Source: Oligoflexia bacterium (GTDB taxonomy: Bacteria; Bdellovibrionota; Bdellovibrionia; JABDDW01). Taken from it: a stretch of 64,000 nt of DNA. Made by a program: the position numbers and the translations under genes. The stretch spans positions 562-64,561 of the forward strand of contig JAYTHU010000094.1 in NCBI GenBank assembly GCA_043732305.1, written 5' to 3'. Positions 5,077 through 64,000 of this stretch are shown here, piece after piece. Positions within the stretch are counted from its first letter, which is position 1, and each line of letters begins with the position of its first letter. The notes below the pieces were generated by a model that worked only from the letters and a program-made list of their open reading frames with translations, made no database searches and was not told the origin of the DNA.

Positions 5077-5619
5077 TTATTCGATAAGATTTTTGATTGT
5101 TTTGTAAGCAACAACTAAGCACATGCGAATGACTTCCGCATCGGAGCTAAGATTAAGACCATCGCGAATCTCATTCAAGATCTGACGGCTTTTGGGGTCG
5201 AGCTTGAGAGAATTTAAAAGCTGAGCGGGACTTGGAGTTTGTTGTTGAGCCTGTTGGGATTGCATTTGCACCTGCACCTGCATGGCTTGGCCCTGCTGCT
5301 GTTGCTGCGCTTGAGGAAACACATTGGGGTTCACAGGCTGTGTTGCTTCGTAGTGGGGTTGAGCTTGAGGGACAACTTCTGGAGGATCAAACTGTTCCAT
5401 CTCTGCTCGGAGATTTTGCAAAGTTTTTTGGAAGTCGTGTGATTTTTTGGTTTGAGCGTCGGGCTGAAATTTATCAAGGGTGCCCATAGATTTTGCGCGC
5501 AGGTAATTAAGAACCATTTGTTCCATGGTTTTTAATTCTTCGCGAACATGTGGTGGAAGCGTCTGAATCCATTTGTACGCTTCCCCAATATCGCGTGCTG
5601 TATATGCCTGCGGTATCAA
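5077..5619 (-). CDS. Hypothetical Gln-rich protein. Its C-terminus may be a ribbon-helix-helix-like segment.
   Basis: 180-aa ORF co-directional between the sigma-54 regulator and ileS. The central Q/A-rich tract is QAQQQQQGQAMQVQVQMQSQQAQQQ. The C-terminus KLDPKSRQILNEIRDGLNLSSDAEVIRMCLVVAY has a strand-helix-helix pattern. No family recognised. Confidence 0.55.
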   Translation of the reverse strand: MIPQAYTARDIGEAYKWIQTLPPHVREELKTMEQMVLNYLRAKSMGTLDKFQPDAQTKKSHDFQKTLQNLRAEMEQFDPPEVVPQAQPHYEATQPVNPNVFPQAQQQQQGQAMQVQVQMQSQQAQQQTPSPAQLLNSLKLDPKSRQILNEIRDGLNLSSDAEVIRMCLVVAYKTIKNLIE

Positions 5620-7165: not shown

Positions 7166-8986
7166 TTAAACGGGTAAATCAATAGTGAATTGTGAGCCTT
7201 TGGTAAACTCAGACTCCACGTTGATTTGCCCGCCATGAAGCTCCACAAAATATTTGGCTAGATACAAACCTAAACCAGAACCTTTGATGGATGTCTCTTT
7301 GACATGCTTACTTCTATAAAACTTCAAAAACACATTGTCTATTTCATCTTGAGGAATGCCTCGCCCTTGATCTTTCACTTGCACTTGGATGCGGCCATTT
7401 TCTTCTTTCGAACAAATGGTTATCTTTGTGCCTTCTTTGCTGTACTTGATAGCATTTTCTATGAGGTTTGCAAGCGCCTGACGAATCAATTCAACATCTA
7501 CTTTGATGCTGAAAAGTGGTTCGAGCTGGGTTTCAAATTCAATATTTTTACTCTGGGCGAGAAATTCAAATTTCTTTACCACTTCATCAATCAAAGCGTT
7601 GATGTCACGACTCGTGCGATGAAGTTTAACGGCTTTGTCCTCGATGCGACTCACATCTAAAATACTGCCTATAAACCCGTTGAGCTGCTCACTCGAAAAA
7701 ATAATTGTTTGCAGAGCTTCCTTCTGATTTACCGCCAGACGTTCACTGTCGATAAGAGCAATCTCTGCCATTCCTTGAATACGCGCGATCGGCGTTTTCA
7801 AATCGTGGCTCATCATCGACATAAAATTTGTTTTAAGTTCTTCGACTTGCATGAGAAGTTTATTTTTCTGCTCGAACTCCCAACCACGTTTGTTTTCCAC
7901 AATGAGTCGATAGGGAATAAAGAAATAATAAGACACAAAAATCGCGATCAACGGATGAGTCATGTTCATCCAGTAACCAAAAATCACAAAGAGCAAATAA
8001 GAAAACGCGGCAAATCCGGCTGCCTGAGCCATGAGCAAGGTGATTCCTTTAACGGGTCTCACTGACCACACCACGAGCACGGTCAAATAAGAAACCGCTG
8101 CCGTAAATATAAGATCCCAAAGACTGCCAATTTTTTTGTAACCGTTATTTTGAATGAGAGTATTGATGATATTGGCTTGCCCTTCAAGACGGGACATGGC
8201 GAGCGGATCTCTTGAGTAAGGAGTGAGGATATAGTCTTCTGTGTCCGCGACGTTGTCTGTTCCGACGAGCACGATTTTTCCAGTGAAGCTTCCTTTGGGA
8301 AATCGACCATCTCTCACATCGATAAAACTCCATGGCTTGAACGTTCCTGCAGGAGCAAAATGAATGAGCGTGAATTCAGATCCATCGGCTTCAAAACGGC
8401 CACGAATATTTCCAATGGTGCCTTTGGCCATTTGAGCCAGTTTATATTGGAGCGTGGATTCATCTTCAAGACTCACCAGCAGACGGCGAGTGACTTTGTC
8501 TCCCGCAAACGTGATGTTGTCTCGTGTTATCGGGGCTGAACCCAAATTTAAAGTGTCATAAGGTTCCGGAAGTTTGAGTTGAGCATAGGAACTCACGGGA
8601 GAAATTTGATCTGTGGCAAAATAAAGTTGTGGTAAGGATTTTGCGTAATCCACAAAATTTATTTTCTCGGCAGGCTGTCCTTCCCACTTTGCGGGATCAT
8701 TCATAAAAATAACTGCTTGGGGTCTATCGCTTATAATTTCTTTGAGTAAATCAGTTTGGTCGGTGACCTTTGGTTCTTGTTTGAGAGCGTTCATTGTTTT
8801 CAGATCAAGCGCTACCAATTCTATTTTTTCTGAAATCTTGGAAGGCGGACTTAACCTGACGCGAACATCGTAAAGAGCGCCTTCGATAAAACTCAATGGG
8901 AATTGGGTGATTAGCCACGCAATGGTAACAGCTCCGAAGAACCGTACTAAAGGGTAGAATTTCTTCCATTTCACGACAATTTTCAT
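7166..8986 (-). CDS. Sensor histidine kinase with a periplasmic CHASE2-like domain.
   Basis: The track ORF extends to 9109, but MKIVVKWKKFYPLVRFFGAVTIAWL (start codon complement at 8984-8986, preceded by a GAGGAA ribosome-binding site) is the plausible start. It carries an extracytoplasmic domain, transmembrane helices, a HisKA motif (MSHDLKTP) and an HATPase_c region (GSGLGLYLAKYFVELHGG). Confidence 0.8.
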   Translation of the reverse strand: MKIVVKWKKFYPLVRFFGAVTIAWLITQFPLSFIEGALYDVRVRLSPPSKISEKIELVALDLKTMNALKQEPKVTDQTDLLKEIISDRPQAVIFMNDPAKWEGQPAEKINFVDYAKSLPQLYFATDQISPVSSYAQLKLPEPYDTLNLGSAPITRDNITFAGDKVTRRLLVSLEDESTLQYKLAQMAKGTIGNIRGRFEADGSEFTLIHFAPAGTFKPWSFIDVRDGRFPKGSFTGKIVLVGTDNVADTEDYILTPYSRDPLAMSRLEGQANIINTLIQNNGYKKIGSLWDLIFTAAVSYLTVLVVWSVRPVKGITLLMAQAAGFAAFSYLLFVIFGYWMNMTHPLIAIFVSYYFFIPYRLIVENKRGWEFEQKNKLLMQVEELKTNFMSMMSHDLKTPIARIQGMAEIALIDSERLAVNQKEALQTIIFSSEQLNGFIGSILDVSRIEDKAVKLHRTSRDINALIDEVVKKFEFLAQSKNIEFETQLEPLFSIKVDVELIRQALANLIENAIKYSKEGTKITICSKEENGRIQVQVKDQGRGIPQDEIDNVFLKFYRSKHVKETSIKGSGLGLYLAKYFVELHGGQINVESEFTKGSQFTIDLPV

Positions 8987-11889: not shown

Positions 11890-12158
11890 TTTTTTCCGAA
11901 GACAAGCAAACCCATTTGGCCCACGTCATTGTTGATGGGATTTGGAACGCCGATATAGTGGAGTATAATGATGAGGATCAGGCGATTCGCGAAGCTAAAA
12001 AAGCTGTCGTTGAGTATGTGAAGCAGGAAGTTTCCATAGATGAGGCTGTTTCTAAGAAAATAGCGACTTTGAAAAAAGGCGTTTTTGAAGGCTCTCGAGA
12101 ATACGATCTTCTCTATAAAAAGTACTATGAAGAAGAACAGAACAAGCATTCAAAATAA
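11886..12158 (+). CDS. DUF507 family protein (second tandem copy).
   Basis: 90 aa. Its start overlaps the upstream stop (ATGA). Size and charge pattern are similar to the first copy. Confidence 0.55.
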   Translation: MIFSEDKQTHLAHVIVDGIWNADIVEYNDEDQAIREAKKAVVEYVKQEVSIDEAVSKKIATLKKGVFEGSREYDLLYKKYYEEEQNKHSK

Positions 12159-26381: not shown

Positions 26382-26457
26382 AAAAAATCCCCCGATTTTC
26401 GCTTGGCGATCAATCGGAGGATGGGGGGTTCTCAGGGGGATGAGAACTTTAATTCTT
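26382..26457. terminator. Bidirectional terminator region between convergent murG and the secreted-protein gene.
   Basis: Hairpin 1 is TCCCCCGATT(26388-26397)...AATCGGAGGA(26412-21) with an A-run 26382-26387. On the minus strand this is a 10-bp stem followed by a U-run. Hairpin 2 is GTTCTCA(26428-34)-GGGGGA-TGAGAAC(26441-47) followed by TTTAATTCTT on the plus strand. Confidence 0.65.
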
Positions 26458-28024
26458 AGTTAGTAGTAGATCTTGATCCAACGGATGAGCGCAATGGACC
26501 CAATCCAGTAGCTGGACTCAAGGCAGCGACTTTTGCTCCATTGTTACCGAAGGGAGATAAACCGGGAAGATTTACATCGGTTGCTGTTGCACTTCTTCCG
26601 CAAACACGAGCCTGATGATTTTGTCTCATGAGAGCATTTAAGTTGTCGTTGAAGTCAGTAGAATCAGCGGCTGTGTTTCCAGCACCGCAAGTGAAGCTGC
26701 TTGCAGCACTTGAAGCTGCCGTGTTGTCGGCAAGTGCAGAGGGTGCCCCGTCAAGACTGAATCCGAATGTTCCACCGGTTGCGACTGTTCCATTTTTGCC
26801 AGCTGACTTTGCATATTTTTGAATGTCTGAATCTAAAGATTTAGTGATCGCAGTCAATCCAGCATTTGAAGAAGCTTGCACGCTTGAAAGATTTGCTCCA
26901 AATTGAGCGTAAGCGGGGTTTGCAGCTACCAAGTCTTTAGCAGAGTATCCACTGACACCTTCAACAAAGTTTTTCTTTGCCACTGCGGCCATATCAGTTA
27001 CATTTTGACCAGCTTGTTTATATTCAGCGGCCATCGCGACCACTTGGCCGCGAATAGCGTTGGCACCAGCAATATCACCAGATGCTGCCAAGACATGAGC
27101 TCGATTAATATGTTCTTGAAGGAGCGTGTGCATTTTATCGAATCGTTGATACTGTGCGCTGGCTTGAGACATCAATGCATTATTGAGAAGTGCTTTGGTT
27201 GCGAAGTCTGAACTTTTGTTGCCACCGCTTCTGATAACATCGTTGAAATAACTCACAAAAGCAGAGTCTCTATCATTCACACCTGCGATCACATCATTAG
27301 TGTATTTTTCTGTGACTAAAGCGAGCAATTCGTTTCCGCGTTTTTTATCGACCGCTTTGTCAGATGCTAAGTAGTTTTCAATCTTATCTTTAGCGTAATC
27401 CATTCGAGCTTGGCTGGAAATGGTGTCGTCATTGATAAAGTTTTTCAAAAGAGTCTGCGCTTTTTTGGCGGCGTCATTTTTTGATTTAGCAGAAGCTTCA
27501 GAATTTTGGCTTATTGCCAATTGGGCATCTATCTTATCAGTGAAACATTTTGCGCGATCATCACCTTCGATTTCAATTCCGTCTTTATCTTCTTTGCAAT
27601 TCTTTTGAGCGAGATCATGCTCTTTTATTTCTTTATTGGTGAGTTTCGAAGTGTCTTTTCCTTGATCTAATTTTGCTACAATTTGAGCAGCCTGTTCTTT
27701 TGCTTTAGCTAAAGTAGACAATTCGTCTGCGCCTGCAGAAACCGTAAGGTCAGCATCTTTTAATTCACTCATTCGATCTTTATGATTTTTGAAATCGATA
27801 GTGGTGTTCTTTCCTTTTTGAATGATGTCGTATACGTAATCGTTGTTTATGAGGAGCCCGGAAGACAGTGTCTTCACTTCGCTCGCGATCACAGACATTG
27901 GTGCTGGTGGCCCCATCAGTTCAGTAGCTTTGGCCATGCTGTAATAAGCGATGGTGAACAGTAATGTCAGACCGAGTGTTAAATAAATCTTCTTCATAAA
28001 TTCTCCCTCTGAGATCGTTATCAC
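26456..28024 (-). CDS. Secreted low-complexity protein: K/A/D-rich helical region plus S/G/A/T-rich tail.
   Basis: The signal peptide MKKIYLTLGLTLLFTIAYYSMAKA means the real start is probably near 27995. The protein is highly charged and coiled-coil-like, with scattered Cys residues and a C-terminal low-complexity tail. No catalytic motif recognised. Confidence 0.6.
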   Translation of the reverse strand: MITISEGEFMKKIYLTLGLTLLFTIAYYSMAKATELMGPPAPMSVIASEVKTLSSGLLINNDYVYDIIQKGKNTTIDFKNHKDRMSELKDADLTVSAGADELSTLAKAKEQAAQIVAKLDQGKDTSKLTNKEIKEHDLAQKNCKEDKDGIEIEGDDRAKCFTDKIDAQLAISQNSEASAKSKNDAAKKAQTLLKNFINDDTISSQARMDYAKDKIENYLASDKAVDKKRGNELLALVTEKYTNDVIAGVNDRDSAFVSYFNDVIRSGGNKSSDFATKALLNNALMSQASAQYQRFDKMHTLLQEHINRAHVLAASGDIAGANAIRGQVVAMAAEYKQAGQNVTDMAAVAKKNFVEGVSGYSAKDLVAANPAYAQFGANLSSVQASSNAGLTAITKSLDSDIQKYAKSAGKNGTVATGGTFGFSLDGAPSALADNTAASSAASSFTCGAGNTAADSTDFNDNLNALMRQNHQARVCGRSATATDVNLPGLSPFGNNGAKVAALSPATGLGPLRSSVGSRSTTN

Positions 28025-48954: not shown

Positions 48955-49752
48955 TTGAGTAAGGGGTCAAAAACAATGAGCAGTCAACTTCTTCGTAAGT
49001 ATAAAGAAGAACCTAGTAAACTCACATCCATGCAAAAAGATAAATTGATTATGGAATATGCTCCCATGATTAAATATATCGCGCAAAAAATTGCAGTGAG
49101 ACTTCCCTCAAATATCGAATTAGATGATTTGATTTCGAGTGGTGTCATTGGACTCATGGATGCAATTGAAAAGTATGATCCTTCTCGAGACAATAAATTT
49201 AAAACGTACGCTGAGTTCCGCGTTCGCGGCGCCATTTTAGATGAGCTTCGTGCGCAAGACTGGGTTCCACGTAGTGTTCGGGACAAAGCTAAGTTACTCG
49301 ATCGAACTTACGCGGCACTCGAGCAATCACTCGGCCGTGCGGCCACTGATGAAGAAGCCGCAGCTGAGTTAAAAATGAACATGGATGAATTCTATGATCT
49401 CATCAATCAAGTGCGACCGGTTTCGCTTTTATCGATAGACGACGTCAATACATTTTCTAACGTCGATAAAAAATCTATTTTGAATTTGCTTGATGTGACT
49501 AAAGTGAATAATCCTCTGAGCCAATTGAATTTGAAAAAAGTTAAAGAAGTTGTCGCGGTAGCGATTGAAGACTTGCCGGAAAAACAAAGATTAGTTCTTA
49601 GTCTTTATTATTATGAAGATCTCAATCTGAAGGAAATTGGGCGAGTGCTCGATGTCACGGAGAGTCGCGTCAGTCAGTTGCACGCTCAAGCAGTCTCTCG
49701 TTTACGTTCCAAGCTCTCCACTTTTTTTGATCAAGACGAAGAAGCTAGCTAA
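48955..49752 (+). CDS. fliA: Flagellar sigma factor FliA (sigma-28).
   Basis: Sigma-70 region 2 (YAEFRVRGAILDELR), region 3 and a region 4 helix-turn-helix (LKEIGRVLDVTESRVSQLHAQAVSRLR). 265 aa. Position after flhG. Confidence 0.85.
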   Translation: MSKGSKTMSSQLLRKYKEEPSKLTSMQKDKLIMEYAPMIKYIAQKIAVRLPSNIELDDLISSGVIGLMDAIEKYDPSRDNKFKTYAEFRVRGAILDELRAQDWVPRSVRDKAKLLDRTYAALEQSLGRAATDEEAAAELKMNMDEFYDLINQVRPVSLLSIDDVNTFSNVDKKSILNLLDVTKVNNPLSQLNLKKVKEVVAVAIEDLPEKQRLVLSLYYYEDLNLKEIGRVLDVTESRVSQLHAQAVSRLRSKLSTFFDQDEEAS

Positions 49753-49759
49753 AATAATC

Positions 49760-51295
49760 CTACGGTCTGAAGTAGTCGTGCAGCGTAGAAGTGTGCGGTT
49801 GGGGATGGGGCGTGTCTTTGGTTTTTTGTCTTTTCCATTGTGCTAGGTCCGTCACTCTGTAATTTTCTGCAGCTTGATCCAACTCAACTTCTGACATCCA
49901 CAATCCAGATTTTGCATACTGCTCCTGATCCGCTTTTATAATAGGAGCGACCATCATCGCCGCCACTCGTTTCACACCGGCAATCATCGCGATCATTGAG
50001 CTTGGAACATCTGGCGTGTAATCCACAGGAATGCTTGAAATCAAAGATGAGATTCTCCAGGCCCAGGGGATTGATCTTGTTGCCCAAAGAACTTTCGCTA
50101 ATTCAGATTCAACACCATCATGAATTTTGTAACCAAGATCTCCCATCATGTGGAGCATGGCGCGTAAGGTGGAATCTTTTTCCCAAGAGTTTCTAACAAG
50201 TCGCACGTCAGTCCAGTCAGCAGCGATATCAAATCGGGAATCGATTTCCATGTCGGCAGGAACCATCATTGGTCCTTGAGAAATACCAATACCCTTGAGA
50301 AAAGCTTTGTCCTTAAAATCAATGTTACTTTTGTGTTCAGGCAGAATGACGGTATCAGTTGAAGCACTCTTAAAACCTTCGTAAGCGACTTGTTCGCACG
50401 ACATTTTGGTGTGATCGTCAAAATCTAGAGCGTAGTTGTAAGGAATGTAGGTGCCAGTTTGTTTCTTTTGCATCACTAGGTTGTAAATATAATCTGACGC
50501 ATCACTTGCAAGCTGAGGTTCTTTAGCTCGAAGTATAAGAATGCGTGCGTTTTCATTTTTTAGGGCATAGACAAGGTCAAACGTCGCGACGCCTTTACCA
50601 ATATAAGATTCAATAGATTCTGTTTCTGCCCCGACGTGCATAAAAACAATGTGACTGAAGAGTGCGCTTTTTTCCGGCAAGCTTGAGATCAAGCTAGAAG
50701 AATAAAGTGAGACTCCTTTGGTGATCATGATGTCACCATTGCGGAATTTGAATCGCACGTCCTGTCCGTCTAGTCCATTTGCGTAGTGGGCGGGAGAATA
50801 AGTTTGCATCGCTTGAGAGGTGCGATCATAAAGTGGCGCTGGATTTAATGGAGTTTCGAATGTTCCGCCACCAACGGTTTCAGATGCAATCTGCCTGACA
50901 TCACTGGAAGCCGCGTAATAATAAACGCTAATGTAGTCTTCAAGTGCTCGCGAATATCGGAAATAATTTTTCATTTCGCGCGCGCAAACATCGGACATTC
51001 CAGCAAGATGGTTGTGAAACTCTAACCTAGTCTGGAACAAGTTTTCCAAAATAACTTTTCCATCCTGTTCAACTGCCAACCGATCCATATCTTTTGGAAT
51101 GAGAGCTTTTACGTAAGTCACCGCCGGAGTGAGTTCGGCTAAGCAGCGGCTGGGGTCTAAGGAATGAGTGCGAGCAAACGCGAGAAGATTTTCGGAATTA
51201 TTTAATGGTTTGGATAAAAAAGTGTCCGCAAATGAAGTTGAACCAATAAACACAAAGGTCCCAAGCAAAATTAAAACTATCCGCTGTTTTTTCAT
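49760..51295 (-). CDS. Secreted hypothetical protein, co-transcribed downstream of rpoH.
   Basis: 511 aa with signal peptide MKKQRIVLILLGTFVFIGSTSFA. It contains an ordered His (..FSHIVFMHVG..) then Cys (..TKMSCEQVAYEGF..) pair. The stop codon lies only 7 nt from the fliA stop on the opposite strand. Confidence 0.55.
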   Translation of the reverse strand: MKKQRIVLILLGTFVFIGSTSFADTFLSKPLNNSENLLAFARTHSLDPSRCLAELTPAVTYVKALIPKDMDRLAVEQDGKVILENLFQTRLEFHNHLAGMSDVCAREMKNYFRYSRALEDYISVYYYAASSDVRQIASETVGGGTFETPLNPAPLYDRTSQAMQTYSPAHYANGLDGQDVRFKFRNGDIMITKGVSLYSSSLISSLPEKSALFSHIVFMHVGAETESIESYIGKGVATFDLVYALKNENARILILRAKEPQLASDASDYIYNLVMQKKQTGTYIPYNYALDFDDHTKMSCEQVAYEGFKSASTDTVILPEHKSNIDFKDKAFLKGIGISQGPMMVPADMEIDSRFDIAADWTDVRLVRNSWEKDSTLRAMLHMMGDLGYKIHDGVESELAKVLWATRSIPWAWRISSLISSIPVDYTPDVPSSMIAMIAGVKRVAAMMVAPIIKADQEQYAKSGLWMSEVELDQAAENYRVTDLAQWKRQKTKDTPHPQPHTSTLHDYFRP

Positions 51296-57043: not shown

Positions 57044-57511
57044 ATGTCAATGCTTGCGCGCTATAAGAAACCAGGTGGAGTGGAACAGCTGCTCTCACTT
57101 CTCGAATCATGCTTGAGTAAGAAGAAAGAACTTTTGCTTAACACCATCATGCAGGAAGACAAAGCTTTCGGCGAAATGATCAAAGCCAAAATTCTCACCG
57201 TCGATAAAATTCTAAAATGGGATCCGCTTATTGTGTCAGAAGCCTCTGCTAAAGTGGGAGAACGAACTCTCGCTGTGGCACTCAAAGGACTTCCTGAGGA
57301 AGCTTTTGCGGTTCTCACGCACACGATGCGAGATTTAAAGAAACGCGAAATTGCGAATCTTCTTGAGACAGTCAAACCAACTAATGTCGAAATCGAATCT
57401 GCTTTTATCAAGATCATTGAAAAAGCTCGCGAGCTCGAACGCTCCGGGCAAATCAAACTTGATGAAAACGAGATGCCCATTATTGGTGTTGCGATGGCCA
57501 AAGCCGCTTGA
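57044..57511 (+). CDS. Standalone FliG-C-terminal-domain-like protein.
   Basis: 155 aa. The C-terminal half LAVALKGLPEEAFAVLTHTMRDLKKREIANLLETVKPTNVEIESAFIKIIEKARELERSGQI matches the FliG_C pattern (LALALKG..nMSqRaae.l.edle.lgpvr..dVEeAq..Iv...r.L...GeI). A GGAGG ribosome-binding site sits upstream. Confidence 0.65.
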   Translation: MSMLARYKKPGGVEQLLSLLESCLSKKKELLLNTIMQEDKAFGEMIKAKILTVDKILKWDPLIVSEASAKVGERTLAVALKGLPEEAFAVLTHTMRDLKKREIANLLETVKPTNVEIESAFIKIIEKARELERSGQIKLDENEMPIIGVAMAKAA

Positions 57512-57517
57512 GCAGAT

Positions 57518-58651
57518 TTATGTGATCTCTTCTAGCAGGTAGCCGAAATCTTCGGCTCCACGCAAAAGTGCGGTCTGAGAAACTACTCTCAGGCCGTTTT
57601 TTTTTGAGCAAATAATAACAACATCAATGCTGTCCACAATGATTTGTCTGACGGCATGCATGCTCCATTGGGAACACGCTCTGAGCACTAAAGATTCCAA
57701 ACGCTTCAGCGCATGTTGTGCAGAATGTGCGTGCAATGTGCAAATGGCTCCTCGGTGGCCAGTTGAAAGCGCGTCCAATAGTGTCAGCGCCTCTGCGCCT
57801 CTCACTTCGCCCACCACAATTCGATCGGGTCTCATGCGCAAAGTATTTTTCAACAAAAGCGAAAGATCTACCGCTGGAATTAAACCTTCTGGATCAGGTC
57901 GGGTGATCATTGTCACGTGGTGAGGGCCAACACTTCCGAGCTCCGGGGTATCCTCCAATGAAACGATTCTCTCACTCGGTGAACATTCTTTTAGAACCGC
58001 ACGCATGAATGTGGTTTTGCCCGAACCGGTAGCCCCGCAAACTAAAATATTTTTCTTTTCCGAAATCCATCCCCGTAGCTGTCCTAAAAATGTCTGTGAA
58101 AACATTCCCTGCAGCAGAAGATCGTTTAGTCCCCAGTTCTGGTGCCCGTGTTTTCTAATCGTCACAACGGGAGTCTGACTGATGGGTGGTAGACTTAGGT
58201 GCACGCGGGCATTTTCAAAAACTCCGTCTACCAGCGGATGCCGAATGTCGCCTGTTTTATCGATAAGTTTCAGAAGGTTTTTAATAAATCGAGAATAGAT
58301 CACCGGTGAGGAAAAACCATTTTCAGCTCTAAACAGCAATCCTGATTTTTCATAGAAAATTTGATCGTGAGAATTTGCGCAAATTTCGGTAACCTCAAGA
58401 TCGTCTAATAATTTTTGTAGCGGTCCAAATCCATCAATCTCAGACTTTAGTTCTCGAATCCAATCGGCAATATCACCTTCGCTAGACTCGTAAATTTTAT
58501 GGCCTTCGCTATTTTCGTAGGATTGGTATTTAGTTAAAATCAAATTGATCGTGTGATCCGTGGTATTTTCATCTATGCCAGCCAGCACTTCATCGACCAA
58601 TTGCGAGAAGTCAGGCTTTTGACGAAGATCCATTAGAAGTCTTCTTTCCAA
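57518..58651 (-). CDS. cpaF: CpaF/TadA-family secretion ATPase (VirB11 superfamily).
   Basis: Walker A LVCGATGSGKTTFM, an Asp box and a His box (RMRPDRIVVGEVRGAEALTLLDALSTGHRGAICTLHA). 377 aa. Confidence 0.85.
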   Translation of the reverse strand: MERRLLMDLRQKPDFSQLVDEVLAGIDENTTDHTINLILTKYQSYENSEGHKIYESSEGDIADWIRELKSEIDGFGPLQKLLDDLEVTEICANSHDQIFYEKSGLLFRAENGFSSPVIYSRFIKNLLKLIDKTGDIRHPLVDGVFENARVHLSLPPISQTPVVTIRKHGHQNWGLNDLLLQGMFSQTFLGQLRGWISEKKNILVCGATGSGKTTFMRAVLKECSPSERIVSLEDTPELGSVGPHHVTMITRPDPEGLIPAVDLSLLLKNTLRMRPDRIVVGEVRGAEALTLLDALSTGHRGAICTLHAHSAQHALKRLESLVLRACSQWSMHAVRQIIVDSIDVVIICSKKNGLRVVSQTALLRGAEDFGYLLEEIT

Positions 58652-59961
58652 AATTGTTTGATGGGGGCTTCAGAATAATGTTCCGGAGAAATCACCCTTG
58701 GGGTTACAAAAATAACCAGTTCAGAATTATTTTCCTTATAGTCTCGACTTTTAAACAACTCGCCAAGCAGTGGTATTGAACTCAAAATTGGGGTGTCTTG
58801 TACACCACGCCCAATCTCACTTCTAATCAATCCCGAGAGCGCAATCGTTTTCTCCCCACGAATATCAAAGTGTGTTTCGATTCGATTGGTTAAAAATCCC
58901 GGAATACCATCAACCTTATGTGCTTCATCTATCAGACTTACTTCCGTCACAAGTTTAGTGGAAATGCCGCTTTGAGAATCGGCTCGAGGAGTGATATCTA
59001 AAATGACTCCGTAGCGTTTCCAAATCACATTTGCTAATTGCCAGCTCATGAGTTTGATTGGGATTTCTCCACCTGCAACAAAATGAGCCTGTTCGCCACT
59101 TCTGCAAATAATTTTAGGATTGGCGATGACTTTCCCGGCATGCTCTTCCATCTGTGCGTTTAGCTGCAAGTTCATGGGGTTTAAATTTCCCATGAAAGAT
59201 CCTAAATCCGCAGACGGAATAATTGTTCCAGAAAAGCTTTGTGGAAAAGCTAAACCTAAATTTCTAATTTTATTTTTTTTAACTTCGGCAATGGTGATGT
59301 CAATTTCGACCATGGGTTTAAGTTCCACTCGCGATGACTCTTCTGCTGCGGGGAGTCCCCAGTCTTTAGCTATTTCATCTACCATTTTGCGCTCTTTAAC
59401 ATCCTGTGTGGCCGTGACAAGTTTCAGATGGCCATGATGGGCTTCTACGTTAGTAGAAAATAGAGCTCGAGATTCCAAATCTTTTTCTATAGCCACTTGA
59501 ACATCTTTGGCCGCGTTTTCTGAAAGTGTGAGTTCAAGATCGACAATTTGGGGATAAGAATTTTTAGCAGTGGAAAAGGTGATCCAATCGTCTAAAGATT
59601 CGCAGGCTCCTTTGATAAGAATTTTCTTGGGACTCATTGCTATTTCATATCCGGTTACGCCAGTCAGTGCCGATTCTAAAAACTTCTTTGCGGGTTCAAG
59701 TTTGGTTGGATAGACAACTACTTTCATGGGAAGTTTTGTACCGGCTTTTAAAAAAGCTTCTCCTGGCTTTTTGCCAATGAGAATGAGATTGGTCTTCTGC
59801 CTTTTTAAAATCACACTCTGTGCGCTGGTGAGAGACACCTCGACAGATGATTTGTACGGCAGAATTTTCTGTTCCCCAACCATCAGATCAATTTCGGTGG
59901 TGGCGGAAGCTTCGTTTACGATCACTAAAATAAGTAGGAACAAGAATACGATTATTTTCAT
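58633..59961 (-). CDS. cpaC: Tad/Flp-type secretin (CpaC/RcpA-like).
   Basis: Signal peptide, N-terminal BON/secretin-N-like region and a C-terminal secretin core (NPKIICRSGEQAHFVAGGEIPIKL...SSIPLLGELFKSR...ELVIFVTPRVI). It overlaps cpaF by 19 nt. Confidence 0.85.
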   Translation of the reverse strand: MKIIVFLFLLILVIVNEASATTEIDLMVGEQKILPYKSSVEVSLTSAQSVILKRQKTNLILIGKKPGEAFLKAGTKLPMKVVVYPTKLEPAKKFLESALTGVTGYEIAMSPKKILIKGACESLDDWITFSTAKNSYPQIVDLELTLSENAAKDVQVAIEKDLESRALFSTNVEAHHGHLKLVTATQDVKERKMVDEIAKDWGLPAAEESSRVELKPMVEIDITIAEVKKNKIRNLGLAFPQSFSGTIIPSADLGSFMGNLNPMNLQLNAQMEEHAGKVIANPKIICRSGEQAHFVAGGEIPIKLMSWQLANVIWKRYGVILDITPRADSQSGISTKLVTEVSLIDEAHKVDGIPGFLTNRIETHFDIRGEKTIALSGLIRSEIGRGVQDTPILSSIPLLGELFKSRDYKENNSELVIFVTPRVISPEHYSEAPIKQFWKEDF

Positions 59962-60074
59962 GCTAGGAGTTCATTGCAAAAATGAAATTGGACTCATGAT
60001 CAATTGAAGGCGTTAGGTGGCCGGTCGGACGTCAATTCCGGACGGAGCGGACGTAGCCCGGAAGTTCAAACAAG

Positions 60075-61154
60075 TTACACATCAAAACTCACGGTGGTTT
60101 GGTTTTCGGAAGATTCAATTTTGATCTCTGAACCATGCGCCCGCAAGAGACTTTGGCTGACCGCAAGCCCCAACCCCATGCCCTGCGAGTGATTTAAAAT
60201 ATTTTCATCTAGGTTAAAAGGTTTTAAAATATGTTCGATCTGACTTTCGCTCAAAGCTGGACCATGATTTGAAATTTCCACTTTTCCTGGCTCTTGCAAA
60301 CTCACTACGATTTCTGAACCTTCGTCAGAAAATTTAACGGCATTGTGAATAATTTTTTTCACAACTTTTGCCATGAGCATTTCGTCAATTTCTGCTTTTT
60401 CAAAACCCCAATTAAATTTCATCCGGAGATTTTTCTTAGTCAACTGATTAATAAAAATCTTTTCCACATTTTCAATCACTAAGCGCAGAGATGATTCTTT
60501 TTTTCTAACCGTCATCTGGCGCGTCTCTGCTGCGAGCAGATCTAGGACATCAAAAACGATATCGTTCAATCGAGCTAAGCCTTGATTGACTCTTAGAAGA
60601 TATTTAACATGGTCAGGATTTTTTAATTCTTCACTCAACAAAGAAAGATAAGACGTCATAGTGGTCAACGGTGTTTTTAATTCGTGGCCAATCAAAATCA
60701 TGAAATGACTTTTTGCTTCGTCTAATGTTCGAAGTTCTCGATTAGCTGCTTCTAACTTTTTATTTTTCTCTTTCACTTCCGCGCGCAGATCATAACTTTC
60801 GATTGCTTTTTTAATGACGATATCGAGTTCCACTGGATCCCAGGGCTTAGTGATATAGCGATAAATCTGGCCATTGTTGATAGCCGCAATTACAGAATCG
60901 ACATCGGTGTAACCGGTGAGAAGAATGCGAATGGCATCTGGCTGAACTATTTGAGCCTTTTCAAACATTTGCACGCCTGTCATTTCCGGCATGCGCTGGT
61001 CACTTAAAATCAAATGTACTTTTTCTTTTTGCAATATTTTTAGCGCTTCGAAGCCGGAAAAAGCTTTGAAGACGGTATAGTCCCTCCGGAACTGACGCTC
61101 CAGGGAGTCGACAATATCTTTTTCGTCATCAACGACGAGAATCGCATGCTTCAT
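60075..61154 (-). CDS. Hybrid response-regulator receiver / histidine kinase (REC-HisKA-HATPase_c).
   Basis: N-terminal REC domain (ILVVDDEKD...LILSDQRMP...ITKPWD), HisKA motif (IGHELKTPLTTM) and HATPase_c (GMGLGLAVSQSLLRAHG). It has no TM segment, so it is cytoplasmic. Confidence 0.85.
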   Translation of the reverse strand: MKHAILVVDDEKDIVDSLERQFRRDYTVFKAFSGFEALKILQKEKVHLILSDQRMPEMTGVQMFEKAQIVQPDAIRILLTGYTDVDSVIAAINNGQIYRYITKPWDPVELDIVIKKAIESYDLRAEVKEKNKKLEAANRELRTLDEAKSHFMILIGHELKTPLTTMTSYLSLLSEELKNPDHVKYLLRVNQGLARLNDIVFDVLDLLAAETRQMTVRKKESSLRLVIENVEKIFINQLTKKNLRMKFNWGFEKAEIDEMLMAKVVKKIIHNAVKFSDEGSEIVVSLQEPGKVEISNHGPALSESQIEHILKPFNLDENILNHSQGMGLGLAVSQSLLRAHGSEIKIESSENQTTVSFDV

Positions 61155-61349
61155 ATATTTTCTTTTCGGATAAGTTCTCGAGAGGGTGAAGTTAGGGGGC
61201 TGGACCTTGGTTTAGCAAATGTAAAATCTAGCCCGAGGGCTGGGTGTGGGTTTGGCAATAGGTCATGGTAAATAAATTTTAGTGATTGAAGTTCCGTGAC
61301 GAAGATACCTCAGTAAGGGTATACTTTTAGCTGGGGAGTAAGCTAAGAA

Positions 61350-63311
61350 ATGATAAAACTCAATAGTTTCTATACGATGTTAGTTGTAATACTTTTCACC
61401 ACGAATGCTTGGGCACAATTGGTTTCGCCGAGTATTGCTGCAAATCCAAACGAAGGGTTGTGGGGAACAGGTGCTGGTGGCCTCGTACAAACTTGTCAGA
61501 ACGGTGCTAGCCTAGCAAAGACAATTGATATCAATGAAGACGATGATGTTCGTGAAGCGCGTGATGCTGGTCGCGAAGCAAAAAGTCACTTAGCAGAATT
61601 AAAGACTAAGCTCGCCGAAATAAAATCGACAAATAAGAATCAAAAAAGTGACCTTCGCCATGCATTTAGTGTTGGAAGTGAAGCTGATTCATTTTTTCAG
61701 ACCGTGACCGCTTGTCAGGAAGTTTTCGATGAAGGAAACAATGCAGAGAAGAGAATCGCTGCAGACGACAAGACCTATCCTAAGCAGAGTGATAAAACTA
61801 ATGCAATATCTGCAGCTCGAGAAACCGCCATTAATTCTCGATTTACTAATGAAACTGGAGATACAGGCAGCAGTGTTCGTGGAGGAGACAAAATAACTAA
61901 TTGCAGACAGGCCGTGTCGCAAGGTGGGGCTCACCCTAGTAAATTTATTGATGCCAAATTACTCTGTGGCGTTCACGATGGACCAGTTGAAAGTGTTTTG
62001 GGCGGATCAACTGACCAAGTTCACCACTCTAAGACTGATGTTGTAGCCTGTCAAAAATCAGCAAGTGGTTTACTAGAAAATATCGAAGCCGAAAGAGTTG
62101 CACAAGGTGAATTTGATAAAGCAAAAAAAGACCTCAGCAAACAAACATCAGAAATCTCAAAAACTATTGCGAAGCGTAAACGTGAGTTAGCCAAAGATTA
62201 CGCTGATGACAAAAAGCTCGCGAAAGAATTGGGCGAAGATGATTCCGGAATCAATTTCACCGATAGCGCCATGGGCGTTCGTGATTGCAAAGATGGAACC
62301 TGCGGTATTGTTCGTGTTGTTGGCGCTAGCAACAACAACAATGACATGTTCGATAAAATTGGTCCCATCATGTTGGGTGCAACTCTCATCGAAACTTTAG
62401 GCAGTGTTTACAACGCTTCGGCTGGACAAAGAACTTGTAAATCATATGGTTATTGCGCTCCTCAGGGACCCAATTACTGGATGCAGCCTGCACAAACTCT
62501 GAACAATGGTATTTCCAATTACGCGCAGCTGGCTTTGCTGAATCAAAAACTCAACAGTTCGGGTTATGGATATCCAATGTCTGGTATTGGCACTGGAATG
62601 GGCAACGGCGCGTTTAGCTGCGCACAACTTGTCGGGTCATCGATTTACAATCAAGTTGGTCAAAATGGAAATATTCTCGGGCCTTATTCTGCTCAGCAAT
62701 CACCTTACGCACAATTGTTGCAGCAACAGCAAGGCCGTTTCAATCCAATGATGAATGGCCAAGTGGGCGTCATGCCAGTCGGTAACGGACAAATGATGTA
62801 TAATCAAAATGGCCAGCTTGCAGCCAACTGCATTCAATTTCCTTGCAACACCAGTGGTCTTGGCAACACACAGGTTTATAATCCTGGAGTGTTTAACGGA
62901 AACGGAAACCAGTCTGGTGGCAATCAGTTCGGCAACAATCAATTTGGCGCTAACGGCGGACTCAACAATTTCAATTCAGGGATTTACGGGCAAAATGCGG
63001 GTGGAGTAAATATGGGTGCTGCCGTTTATGCGGACTCAATGCGTGAAGCTCAACAAGCTCAGTATCTTATGGGTGCTAGCCAGGCGGGCCTTTCATTTGC
63101 TCAGCAATCTCAGTATTTCGGTGGAAACACCGGCGCCATCAGCAACGGCAATGGTCAAAACCAATTCAATTTGAATTTGAGTTACAATCCTGCCAATTCA
63201 AACGGAGCAAGTAGTCCTTTTGGATCTCAATATGGTTTGCCCACGCTAGGTACCGGTGGAAGCACTTATCTGCCTGGCGTGACCACTGGCGCCTCAGTCT
63301 TCGGTAGATAA
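61350..63311 (+). CDS. Secreted protein with a charged helical N-terminal half and a long Q/N/G-rich prion-like C-terminal half.
   Basis: Signal peptide MIKLNSFYTMLVVILFTTNAWA. It has about 10 Cys in the N-terminal half. The C-terminal ~300 aa is dominated by Q, N, G, S and Y (QQSPYAQLLQQQQGRFNPMMNGQ...NGNGNQSGGNQFGNNQFGANGG...). Confidence 0.65.
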   Translation: MIKLNSFYTMLVVILFTTNAWAQLVSPSIAANPNEGLWGTGAGGLVQTCQNGASLAKTIDINEDDDVREARDAGREAKSHLAELKTKLAEIKSTNKNQKSDLRHAFSVGSEADSFFQTVTACQEVFDEGNNAEKRIAADDKTYPKQSDKTNAISAARETAINSRFTNETGDTGSSVRGGDKITNCRQAVSQGGAHPSKFIDAKLLCGVHDGPVESVLGGSTDQVHHSKTDVVACQKSASGLLENIEAERVAQGEFDKAKKDLSKQTSEISKTIAKRKRELAKDYADDKKLAKELGEDDSGINFTDSAMGVRDCKDGTCGIVRVVGASNNNNDMFDKIGPIMLGATLIETLGSVYNASAGQRTCKSYGYCAPQGPNYWMQPAQTLNNGISNYAQLALLNQKLNSSGYGYPMSGIGTGMGNGAFSCAQLVGSSIYNQVGQNGNILGPYSAQQSPYAQLLQQQQGRFNPMMNGQVGVMPVGNGQMMYNQNGQLAANCIQFPCNTSGLGNTQVYNPGVFNGNGNQSGGNQFGNNQFGANGGLNNFNSGIYGQNAGGVNMGAAVYADSMREAQQAQYLMGASQAGLSFAQQSQYFGGNTGAISNGNGQNQFNLNLSYNPANSNGASSPFGSQYGLPTLGTGGSTYLPGVTTGASVFGR

Positions 63312-63330: not shown

Positions 63331-64000
63331 TTAGTACGCTGCCTCAGTCACTCTGTGGCTGGGGTTGGCGTTGTTTGACTGATTTTCGCCCTGTTTAATC
63401 GCAACAATCGTCCCAATTGTAACAACACTTACTCCCACCCAAAACCACGGGGATCTAGTCAGTTTTGAAAACCAACTATTGCCACGCTTTACTGGGGTAA
63501 ATTCAGATTTACCTACCAAGTCAATTTTTTGCACTAATTTTTCTTCCTTGATAGGAAGTCGTGAAATTTTTGTGACATCTTTCATCAATGCTTTTGGAAT
63601 GTCTCCGGGAAGAGTTGGGGTTTCGGCGACGATCATGATTTGTCGGCCCTTGAGATCGAACCAAGAATCCCCGTCGTAAACTCTGAGACATCTGCCATCA
63701 TCAAACACGGTGACTAGTCTAGTGTGCGCAGGCAGGAAGAGTTTTTTGTCCACGCTGGGTTGTTCACAGCTTCCAAGCACAAGCGGTTCTGGTTTGAATA
63801 CGAATGAGATGAAGTTATCGCGACTGCTGATTCCCGTGATATTTTGGGCTTCGAAGTTTTCCACCTGCCATGAACTTCCTGGAATCAAAACAGCCCATTG
63901 ATGTTTCCCGGTATAAACCTTAGTTTTTCCAGAGACTTCAATAAATTTCTGTCCATCTAAGTAAATGAGACTCGAGCGTGGCACTTGAATTTTCAAAGTC
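63331..64000 (-). CDS. Hypothetical C-terminally membrane-anchored protein, possibly partial.
   Basis: The first in-window Met is at 63996. If that Met is not the true start, the reading frame would continue past the window end. It has a C-terminal TM helix (WFWVGVSVVTIGTIVAI) and a short N/Q-rich tail. No recognised domain. Confidence 0.4.
   Translation of the reverse strand, partial: TLKIQVPRSSLIYLDGQKFIEVSGKTKVYTGKHQWAVLIPGSSWQVENFEAQNITGISSRDNFISFVFKPEPLVLGSCEQPSVDKKLFLPAHTRLVTVFDDGRCLRVYDGDSWFDLKGRQIMIVAETPTLPGDIPKALMKDVTKISRLPIKEEKLVQKIDLVGKSEFTPVKRGNSWFSKLTRSPWFWVGVSVVTIGTIVAIKQGENQSNNANPSHRVTEAAY

Follow-up and report, generated by a model that had tools for sequence, protein, structure and literature searches.

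What does an exported bacterial protein with a long, almost uncharged tail do when its gene is embedded in a pilus-type gene cluster? The question is raised by an open reading frame (ORF) at positions 61350–63311 of a 64,000-nucleotide stretch of DNA (hereafter the window) from an Oligoflexia bacterium (GenBank assembly GCA_043732305.1, contig JAYTHU010000094.1). An earlier note on this DNA described the product, here called the target, as a secreted protein with a prion-like domain and as a candidate substrate or component of the neighboring secretin/ATPase module. We give about even credence to the following answer. The target is a fast-evolving, Sec-exported member of a family that occupies one fixed position in this cluster, it is the positional ortholog of Bd3304 of Bdellovibrio bacteriovorus, and it serves as a cohesive or adhesive envelope protein in predation, for which the adjacent secretin and ATPase are not needed.

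A protein family at a conserved genomic position

The gene is inverted between an operon for a Flp pilin and pseudopilins and an operon for a kinase with receiver and histidine kinase domains (REC-HK), a secretin, and an ATPase. We call this position the slot. The arrangement is present in 10 of 10 loci of Bdellovibrionota/Oligoflexia and is kept down to 29% secretin identity. In the window, the target lies on the plus strand and the REC-HK/secretin/ATPase module on the minus strand, so the two are transcribed divergently, as first described.

The slot family alignment has ten members: the target (locus L001, the extension of the window beyond its end), P0002 (L002), and the proteins of L004–L011. 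The last eight loci were found via homologs of the neighboring secretin, which are 53–29% identical. Each of their contigs carries, at the same inverted position, a gene for a 634–727-residue protein without a Pfam match.

Direct sequence searches detect only two family members among about 15 billion proteins. An exhaustive HMMER scan of 1.84 billion representatives, with residues 23–440 as the query, returned a single relative, P0002. This 611-residue protein from a Bdellovibrionia metagenome-assembled genome is 31% identical to the target (E 4.5e-21) and shares its architecture and genomic position. A full-length search of 5.8 billion clusters recovered the query itself only, its candidate list probably being flooded by low-complexity words, and a word-indexed search with a profile of the two N-domains (target and P0002) gave no additional relatives. 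A scan of GTDB genomes found P0002's contig only. Metagenome scans found no relative with alignment-derived patterns and 45 stretches with a hand-made GYPTGPNP pattern, none of which matched the family hidden Markov model (HMM).

Six further slot proteins align with the target across the whole N-domain. The protein of L007 matches the target over residues 8–410 (BLASTP 3e-13), and the profile of target and P0002 matches a profile of four distant members in hhalign with a probability of 99.3% and an E of 4.7e-20. As judged from these alignments, the slot proteins are homologous and form a family of at least 10. Each locus has one slot gene, and within the window the family HMM detects no paralog. 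Identity to the closest relative is 29% for the slot protein, versus 51% for the ATPase, 53% for the secretin, 70% for the kinase, and 76% for the FliG_C protein. By this comparison, the slot protein evolves much faster than its neighbors.

The members share a common anatomy in which C49, C234, C313, P409, G416, G420, C424, and R653 are invariant. All ten begin with a signal peptide ending in small-x-A, usually followed by Gln. Next come a short motif, G-S-G...Q-x-C-x-[YF]-G, which contains C49, and an acidic patch. The following region is charged and helical, with C122, C206, and C234 conserved, and after it stand a second acidic patch and the motif G-[VC]-[RK]-[DN]-C, which contains C313. 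A Gly/Ala-rich, moderately hydrophobic helix leads through basic residues to L-G-Y-P-T-x-P, and a further motif reads [YF]-G-[YF]-P...G-x-G-x-G-x-[FYW]-[GS]-C. The remainder includes a Q-rich, helix-like patch, which reaches up to roughly 70 residues in L008 and L011 but is short in the target. The Gly-rich end closes in Arg in 10 of 10 members.

Reading frame and N-terminal half

Low-complexity frames can arise by chance in repetitive DNA, and the gene could in principle be a spurious ORF or a frameshifted fusion. We discount such an annotation or assembly artefact almost completely. The frame is open for 653 codons, and the DNA is non-repetitive, with no meaningful tandem repeats. The identical 653-residue protein is present in two independent sources, the NCBI assembly (74-kb contig) and the Logan assembly of SRR22198290, and nine relatives retain this architecture up to their final residue. 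The longest ORFs in the other five frames are of 81 residues or fewer. Because homologs hold the long frame open up to the conserved C-terminal Arg, the assemblies are independent, and ORFs elsewhere are short, a frameshift artefact, named by the earlier note as a way to overturn its claim, is excluded.

The N-terminus, MIKLNSFYTMLVVILFTTNAWA|QL, combines a hydrophobic core with an A-x-A cleavage motif (AWA|Q), forming a classical Sec signal and not a G/XXXXEY prepilin motif. Inspection of the N-terminal sequence revealed neither a lipobox nor a twin-arginine motif. These features mark the target as a protein exported by Sec. Residues 51–300 are 20–50% charged and predicted to be helical, and the protein contains 12 cysteines. 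The signal peptide and the charged, cysteine-containing helical half claimed in the earlier note are therefore both real features of the sequence. C49, C122, C206, C234, and C313 are conserved, and close relatives additionally retain C185 and C318. The conserved cysteines of the family suggest folding in an oxidising compartment.

AlphaFold2 models computed from a two-sequence alignment have a mean predicted local distance difference test score (pLDDT) of 37.8 for the full-length protein and 48.5 for the N-domain. Two long helices in the N-domain (residues 65–105 and 228–293; pLDDT 62–86) probably form a coiled-coil hairpin. In the alignment, an acidic patch and the conserved GVRDC..GTCG motif come after the second helix.

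No known family or fold was matched. Foldseek comparison of the target models with the PDB returned generic coiled coils only (best E 0.065), and a PDB sequence search with the family profile found nothing under E 0.1. The target matches no Pfam family at E up to 0.1 and no NCBIfam family, the sole match in these libraries being a spurious SMC coiled-coil far below its cut-off. It also matches none of the Pfam/NCBIfam models for known Tad/Flp components (Flp, TadE/F/G, RcpA/B/C, TadZ/A/B/C/D, and TadV). Rfam has no match anywhere in the 64-kb window. The earlier note had allowed that the protein might belong to a common annotated adhesin family with no link to the module. The lack of a Pfam/NCBIfam match and the conserved synteny speak against this.

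The low-complexity tail

The Q/N/G/S/Y-rich tail, described before as about 300 residues long, spans about 320 residues and is indeed extreme in composition. Against the 18 other genes of the window (binomial test), it contains 24.1% Q+N versus 7.5% (P 3e-20), 17.3% Gly versus 6.2% (P 3e-12), and 3.7% D+E+K+R versus 25.3% (P 6e-26). The 29 Q/N at residues 452–531 (P 3e-13) are the highest count in 80 residues among window ORFs of at least 150 residues. The classic criterion for Q/N-rich proteins, in the 2000 paper of Michelitsch and Weissman, is reportedly at least 30 Q+N in some 80-residue window. The target misses it by one and is borderline. Only one family member passes, that of L008 with 40 per 80, owing to its Q-rich helix. 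There are no repeated 5-mers in the target.

The tails of the family measure 213–351 residues, are 1–4% charged in every member, and contain 18–44% Gly. Their flavor differs between loci: G/Y/P in L005, L006, and L010, G/M/A/P in L009, G/N/Q/L in L008, A/N/G/Q/Y in L011, and Q/N/G in the target. Since the flavor drifts among relatives, the Q/N-rich, prion-like composition belongs to one lineage and represents its version of a physical property that the family conserves. That property is an uncharged, Gly-rich tail with mostly evenly spaced aromatics, that is, physics rather than sequence. The resemblance to prion-like or FG domains seen in the earlier note thus stands for composition, but Q/N richness is not conserved in the family and falls just short of the cut-off.

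Even spacing of aromatics is the sticker-and-spacer pattern of phase-separating prion-like domains. The 23 aromatics of the target tail have a spacing coefficient of variation of 0.45 versus 0.89 ± 0.16 for shuffled tails, and none of 2000 shuffles was as even. Spacing is more regular than in shuffles in five of eight members tested, the target and four others (at most 0.6% of shuffles), and not in the remaining three. The target tail has a pLDDT of 21–30 in AlphaFold2.

The internal hydrophobic helix at residues 334–361 was considered as a transmembrane segment and judged unlikely to be one. Its Kyte-Doolittle mean over 19 residues is 1.04, under the usual transmembrane threshold, and the best internal 19-residue windows across the family reach 0.98–1.45, compared with the usual 1.6. 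On the crude Hessa scale, the internal segments sum to +5 to +9, versus +3 to +5 for the signal peptides. For the invariant C-terminal Arg, which is not preceded by a hydrophobic segment, we know of no matching sorting signal.

The second most Q/N-rich ORF of the window encodes 180 residues at 5077–5619 on the minus strand, between ileS and the gene of an NtrC-type regulator. It has a Q-rich central tract, ...PQAQQQQQGQAMQVQVQMQSQQAQQQ..., with 27 Q/N in 80 residues, and no signal peptide by eye.

The counterpart in Bdellovibrio bacteriovorus

In B. bacteriovorus HD100, flp3 is bd3297 and fliA is bd3318; the B. exovorus genes are a11q_630 and a11q_617, respectively (Avidan et al., PMC5430801). 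The same study found flp3 to be silent and dispensable and termed it 'non-TAD-associated'. Two further genes of this region, bd3306 and bd3307, have been named pilQ and cpaF (Capeness et al., PMC3818213). In the window, fliA lies at 48955–49752, and counting on from it, the Flp gene comes 16th. We identify the cluster with the flp3 locus of B. bacteriovorus.

The corresponding region of strain 109J reads four hypothetical genes, the metal-dependent hydrolase EP01_RS01725, and the hypothetical gene EP01_RS01730, which is Bd3304. These are followed by a hybrid sensor kinase/response regulator, a pilus assembly protein, and a Flp pilus ATPase (PMC6561027, Data Set S2). L008, L010, and L011 show the order Amidohydro_3, slot gene, REC-HK, secretin, and ATPase. 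The 109J order is identical, which makes Bd3304 the positional ortholog of the slot family. The amidohydrolase gene following the slot gene is present in Bdellovibrio-type loci and absent in the window. Bd3304 was annotated by RAST as 'PE family protein' and by PHYRE as collagen I alpha and colicin Ia (PMC6561027). These labels are consistent with a long helical hairpin that bears a Gly-rich tail.

Bd3304 was a hit in a transposon sequencing (Tn-seq) study of 109J in a host-independent background, the full screen of which covered planktonic and biofilm V. cholerae and E. coli (Duncan et al. 2019, PMC6561027). Of the 104 genes needed by B. bacteriovorus for predation on planktonic V. cholerae, 41 are 'hypothetical' (PMC6561027). 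The fitness W of Bd3304 was 0.0036, 0.060, 0.036, and 0.083 in the full screen and 0.0009–0.0099 in the mini-library, comparable to type IVa pilus genes (PMC6561027). In the same data, W was 1.4–1.6 for the hybrid kinase, 1.7–1.9 for the secretin, and 1.4–1.9 for the ATPase. It was 0.8–2.0 for the four hypotheticals beyond the hydrolase (RS01705–01720), and 2.6 and 1.8 in the first condition for RS01750 and RS01755 beyond the ATPase, respectively. The hydrolase downstream of Bd3304 had a W of 0.17–0.65, so a polar effect cannot explain the Bd3304 phenotype. Across EP01_RS01705–01755 on planktonic V. cholerae, every flanking gene but the hydrolase had a W of 1.1–2.6, and the slot gene 0.004 (PMC6561027). 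Fitness effects of opposite sign inside a single conserved cluster might point to antagonism and not just to independence.

Bd3304 was induced 11.7-fold in attack phase (PMC6561027). Its mutants scored 0.72 for attachment (controls 0.97, 'low' below 0.5) and 0.89 for prey rounding (controls 1.2, 'low' below 0.4), and a pilC mutant in the same screen scored 0.11 and 0.018, respectively (PMC6561027). By way of positional orthology, we infer that the slot family acts in predation after attachment and rounding, independently of the flanking machine in laboratory predation. We found no main-text discussion of Bd3304 in the papers searched.

Upstream motifs

All 10 loci carry a TG[TA]CGA element ahead of the slot gene, mostly 40–55 nucleotides from the start codon. 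In the closer loci, TATAC-like bases follow after 17 nucleotides. The composite promoter-like motif occurs once in the 64-kb window, where about 0.9 occurrences are expected. Judged by this conservation, the slot gene carries its own promoter-like motif, which is not sigma-28-like and resembles a dedicated promoter. Since the other Tad operon depends on FliA, we also considered a sigma-28 promoter, but none is evident upstream of the target.

In 6 of 10 loci, a second intergenic motif, AGGTCTAGA(T) (GGTC[TC]AG), precedes the slot gene by about 100–150 nucleotides. It is seen in L002, L006–L008, L010, and L011, and the window (61155–61349) has a degenerate copy, GAGGGCTGG. This motif may be an operator or the promoter region of the divergent kinase operon.

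Proposed function and alternatives

In the favored explanation, Sec export and disulfide formation would allow the helical domain to position the protein in the predator envelope or at the predator–prey interface. The uncharged tail, with its evenly spaced aromatic stickers, would cohere or adhere through numerous weak contacts, whose partners could be the tail itself, cell-wall glycans, or components of pili or channels. It would work as a gel or glue and not as a folded enzyme, and it would do so without the adjacent secretin and ATPase, at least in laboratory predation. Our confidence in this mechanism is moderate to low.

Several points weigh against the explanation. The orthology of Bd3304 rests on gene order, locus-tag numbering, and annotation flavor, not on alignment. 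A signal peptide is present in all ten slot proteins examined, whereas the table of Duncan et al. lists 'No signal sequence' for Bd3304 (PMC6561027). Bd3304 is known as a pooled-screen hit in a host-independent background that was not individually validated in that study (PMC6561027). The phenotype may not transfer to the organism of the window, which is a distant relative with 29–40% secretin identity to 'Bdellovibrio sp.' loci. The low pLDDT values, coming from a two-sequence alignment, are weak evidence of disorder. The final location of the protein (periplasm, surface, or medium) and the self-association of its tail are inferred. In addition, the strict synteny argues for some functional tie to the Tad-like module, for which the favored explanation does not account.

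The synteny supports an alternative in which the target is a substrate or external component of the adjacent Tad-like machine, such as an adhesin, matrix, or tip-associated protein passed through the neighboring secretin by the ATPase and pseudopilins. The slot gene lies between the pilin/pseudopilin and REC-HK/secretin/ATPase operons in all ten loci, its fast evolution is typical of surface-exposed proteins, and with a Sec signal and no outer-membrane targeting feature, surface exposure would need a secretin-type route. We nevertheless consider this unlikely. The secretin, ATPase, kinase, and pseudopilin-like genes of 109J have W values of 1.1–2.6 versus 0.004–0.08 for Bd3304 (PMC6561027), although the other Tad secretin (Bd0112) or PilQ may act redundantly. 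Moreover, Bd3304 shows attack-phase induction, whereas flp3 is silent and dispensable (PMC5430801). The slot gene is oppositely oriented and carries a promoter-like motif of its own, and the locus is without TadB/TadC, TadZ, and prepilin peptidase. Of the link to the module drawn in the earlier note, the conserved synteny stands, and the role as substrate or component of the secretin is disfavored by Tn-seq (PMC6561027). In another alternative, the target would be a periplasmic regulator or scaffold of pilus dynamics (type IVa or other Tad pili) resembling Bd0108/Bd0109 of the hit locus, and its disordered tail would bind pilins, peptidoglycan, or a secretin vestibule. There is precedent for exported, disordered pilus regulators inside a Bdellovibrio Tad locus (PMC3818213, PMC4267844), and Bd0109-like 'RHS' genes adjoin pilus genes, one of them near bd3306/bd3307 (Capeness et al., PMC3818213). 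A Sec-only signal favors the periplasm, and the modeled helical hairpin would be of periplasm-spanning length. However, pilus mutants (pilC) lose attachment and rounding, and Bd3304 is near normal in both. The target also shows no RHS/YD-repeat similarity (RHS_repeat PF05593; Pfam at E up to 0.1), and the proposal proceeds by analogy. On balance, we find a pilus regulator doubtful.

The tail could also be read as a material. The possibility that it forms an FG-nucleoporin-like gel or condensate outside the cytoplasm seems quite improbable to us. Tethered by the disulfide-bonded hairpin and the C-terminal Arg, such a condensate would perform a post-attachment mechanical step of predation, for example at the entry pore, which it could seal or gate, or at an envelope conduit, which it could plug. 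If this were true, the family would provide an extracytoplasmic phase-separating protein essential for a bacterial predator. Less credible still is a functional amyloid or true prion-like switch, in which the tail, once outside the cytoplasm, would template its own conversion to a cross-beta state like that of curli. The 29 Q/N per 80 residues, the few charges, and the richness in Gly and Tyr would suit an amyloid, and secreted Q/N/G-rich amyloids exist (curli CsgA). However, several family members reach at most 14–18 Q/N per 80 residues and contain 43–44% Gly, a content that generally disfavors amyloid. The target has no curlin repeat (Pfam Curlin_rpt) and no regular imperfect repeats, and no CsgG/CsgB-like or csgG/E/F-type neighbors are found in the window and L001.

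Genomic neighborhood

The features of the target gene and its neighbors are collected in Table 1. Beyond the window, L001 continues on the minus strand with a 175-residue protein that has an N-terminal transmembrane helix and is possibly CpaB-like (by sequence reading, with no family match). Three TadE/G-like pseudopilins of 92, 241, and 129 residues and the Flp pilin (Pfam Flp_Fap 1.2e-09) are also encoded there. The cluster thus has one part at 57518–61154 of the window and another at 11982–15348 of L001. No genes for a TadB/TadC platform, TadZ, or prepilin peptidase are found in the cluster across the window and L001.

Table 1. Features of the target gene and its surroundings in the window.
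Feature	Position	Strand	Basis
Coding sequence of the 653-residue exported protein, stop codon included; slot-family member, positional ortholog of Bd3304	61350..63311	+	
Promoter-like TGACGA-N17-TATAC, 53 nucleotides 5' of start codon	61297..61324	+	Consensus scan: GTGACG-18-TATACT
Shine-Dalgarno-like GGGGAG, 11 nucleotides 5' of ATG	61333..61338	+	Direct sequence reading
Sec signal peptide, residues 1–22, predicted cleavage AWA|Q	61350..61415	+	Sequence; equivalent small-x-A site in 10/10 members
Charged, Cys-containing helical N-terminal domain, residues 23–330	61416..62339	+	Composition, conserved columns, AlphaFold2 helices, profile-profile match
Long helix 1, residues 65–105, probable coiled-coil hairpin	61542..61664	+	pLDDT 73–86, N-domain model
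Long helix 2, residues 228–293, probable hairpin	62031..62228	+	pLDDT 62–83, N-domain model, alignment
Uncharged low-complexity tail, residues 331–653 (G 17%, N 13%, Q 11%, Y 6%; 12 charged residues)	62340..63308	+	Composition, pLDDT, aromatic spacing
Moderately hydrophobic conserved helix, residues 334–361, then LGYP-type motif (SYGYCAP in target)	62349..62432	+	Model helix, alignment
Family signature YGYPM...G-x-G-x-G-A-F-S-C, residues 406–424	62565..62621	+	Invariant P409, G416, G420, C424 in 10-sequence alignment
Densest Q/N stretch, residues 452–531, 29 Q/N in 80 residues, NQFG-type motifs	62703..62942	+	
Q-rich patch, residues 560–590, YADSMREAQQAQYL...AQQSQY	63027..63119	+	Aligns with long Q-rich helix-like segment of all relatives
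C-terminal Arg codon (R653)	63306..63308	+	Invariant in 10/10 family members
REC-HisKA-HATPase_c cytoplasmic kinase, divergent neighbor	60075..61154	-	Pfam; adjoins slot gene in all loci
CpaC/RcpA-type secretin	58633..59961	-	Pfam Secretin 1e-32; homologs named CpaC by JGI
TadA/CpaF/VirB11-class secretion ATPase	57518..58651	-	Pfam T2SSE 7.7e-35; NCBIfam TIGR03819 2.8e-62, below its cut-off
Stand-alone FliG_C-domain protein	57044..57511	+	Pfam; syntenic with ATPase in closer loci
3' part of convergent 400-residue gene (signal peptide, C-terminal transmembrane helix)	63331..64000	-	Last gene of Flp-pilin/pseudopilin operon running past window

In the kinase of the cluster, the receiver domain precedes HisKA and there is no membrane segment. 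The FliG_C-only protein (138–157 residues, 54–76% identity) adjoins the Tad-like ATPase, an unusual neighbor for a pilus ATPase. Further copies lie at 2220–2690 of L002, 12402–12869 of L004, 12401–12874 of L005, 8161–8619 of L006, and 12391–12807 of L007. In L005, toxin-antitoxin-like pairs (BrnT/CopG-type and NTP_transf_2) are inserted at 4479–5052 and 7351–7897, to either side of the slot gene, which is undisplaced.

The earlier note had pointed to a second protein of similar architecture at 26456–28024. This candidate paralog was rejected, as the two proteins are unrelated (BLASTP E 0.42, no match to the family HMM). The gene is on the minus strand between murG and a KamA-like radical-SAM gene, and encodes a secreted, K/A/D-rich helical protein of 513/522 residues with 4 cysteines. 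The protein has a signal peptide, a charged helical body, and an A/S/G/T-rich tail, with 5–18% Q+N per 50-residue block. It belongs to no Pfam or NCBIfam family and is a singleton cluster in the protein collection. Another signal-peptide protein, of 511 residues, is encoded at 49760–51295 on the minus strand between fliA and an RpoH-like sigma gene and is not there in the related loci examined.

Significance

Predator Tad/Kil-like loci and exported, disordered pilus regulators are already known. The slot family, its architecture, and its tie to an unexplained predation-fitness gene appear to be undescribed. A hypothetical predation gene of the Bd3304 type hereby gains a defined anatomy and a family. 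The family definition, which comprises the cysteines, two signature motifs, the terminal Arg, the promoter-like motif, and the physics of the tail, turns an anonymous screen hit into testable hypotheses. It also poses a puzzle for the predator Tad/Kil pilus field, as the pilus cluster in which the slot gene is locked is dispensable and in part silent. If the favored explanation is true, the target would offer a rare example of an extended prion-like or FG-like domain that acts outside the bacterial cytoplasm. Interest would be high should the tail turn out to form a gel outside the cytoplasm that predation requires.

Comparison with known systems

Bacterial prion-like candidates have been surveyed before (PMC6400439). 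The target tail resembles FG-nucleoporin and prion-like domains in being uncharged and rich in Q/N/G/S/Y/F, with NQFG-type motifs, even aromatics, predicted disorder, and a coiled-coil anchor. It differs in being extracytoplasmic and Cys-containing and in having only 5 FG dipeptides in 229 residues. The resemblance is one of composition, with no homology. Likewise, the slot family resembles mycobacterial PE_PGRS proteins in its Gly-rich, low-charge, repetitive C-terminus, the likely source of the RAST 'PE family' label. The target has no PE domain by Pfam and uses Sec rather than ESX, and this likeness is compositional only.

Among curli proteins, the secreted CsgF phase-separates via Phe residues at the CsgG outer-membrane channel (PMC10133297), which offers a bacterial precedent for the proposed gel or glue. 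CsgA and CsgF are, like the target, exported low-complexity proteins, and aromatics drive self-association at an outer-membrane secretion channel. Unlike curli proteins, the target has no curlin repeat, no CsgG/E/B-like genes nearby, and a far longer tail. CsgF is dependent on its channel; the phenotype of Bd3304, by contrast, does not depend on the neighboring secretin.

The other Bdellovibrio Tad locus also encodes exported proteins. Bd0108, which is intrinsically disordered, and Bd0109, a 62.5-kDa, 'YD/RHS-like' protein, resemble the target in being exported, without an assigned fold, and inside a predator Tad/Flp cluster. In this pair, disorder is used in the periplasm, and the two are proposed to act on pili other than those encoded next door. 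They differ from the target in lying in a different locus (bd0108-0119), where they are co-transcribed with Tad genes and not inverted. Bd0109 is described as a beta-rich YD-repeat protein, whereas the target tail is almost without Asp/Glu, a comparison by description only. The identity of the target with Bd0109 of the hit locus was ruled out on locus position and the published description.

Compared by position and not by sequence, Bd3304 matches the target in occupying the same slot beside a hybrid HK/RR (histidine kinase/response regulator), followed by the secretin (bd3306) and the Flp ATPase (bd3307). Its locus is also like L008, L010, and L011 in carrying a metal-dependent hydrolase on the other side of the slot gene.

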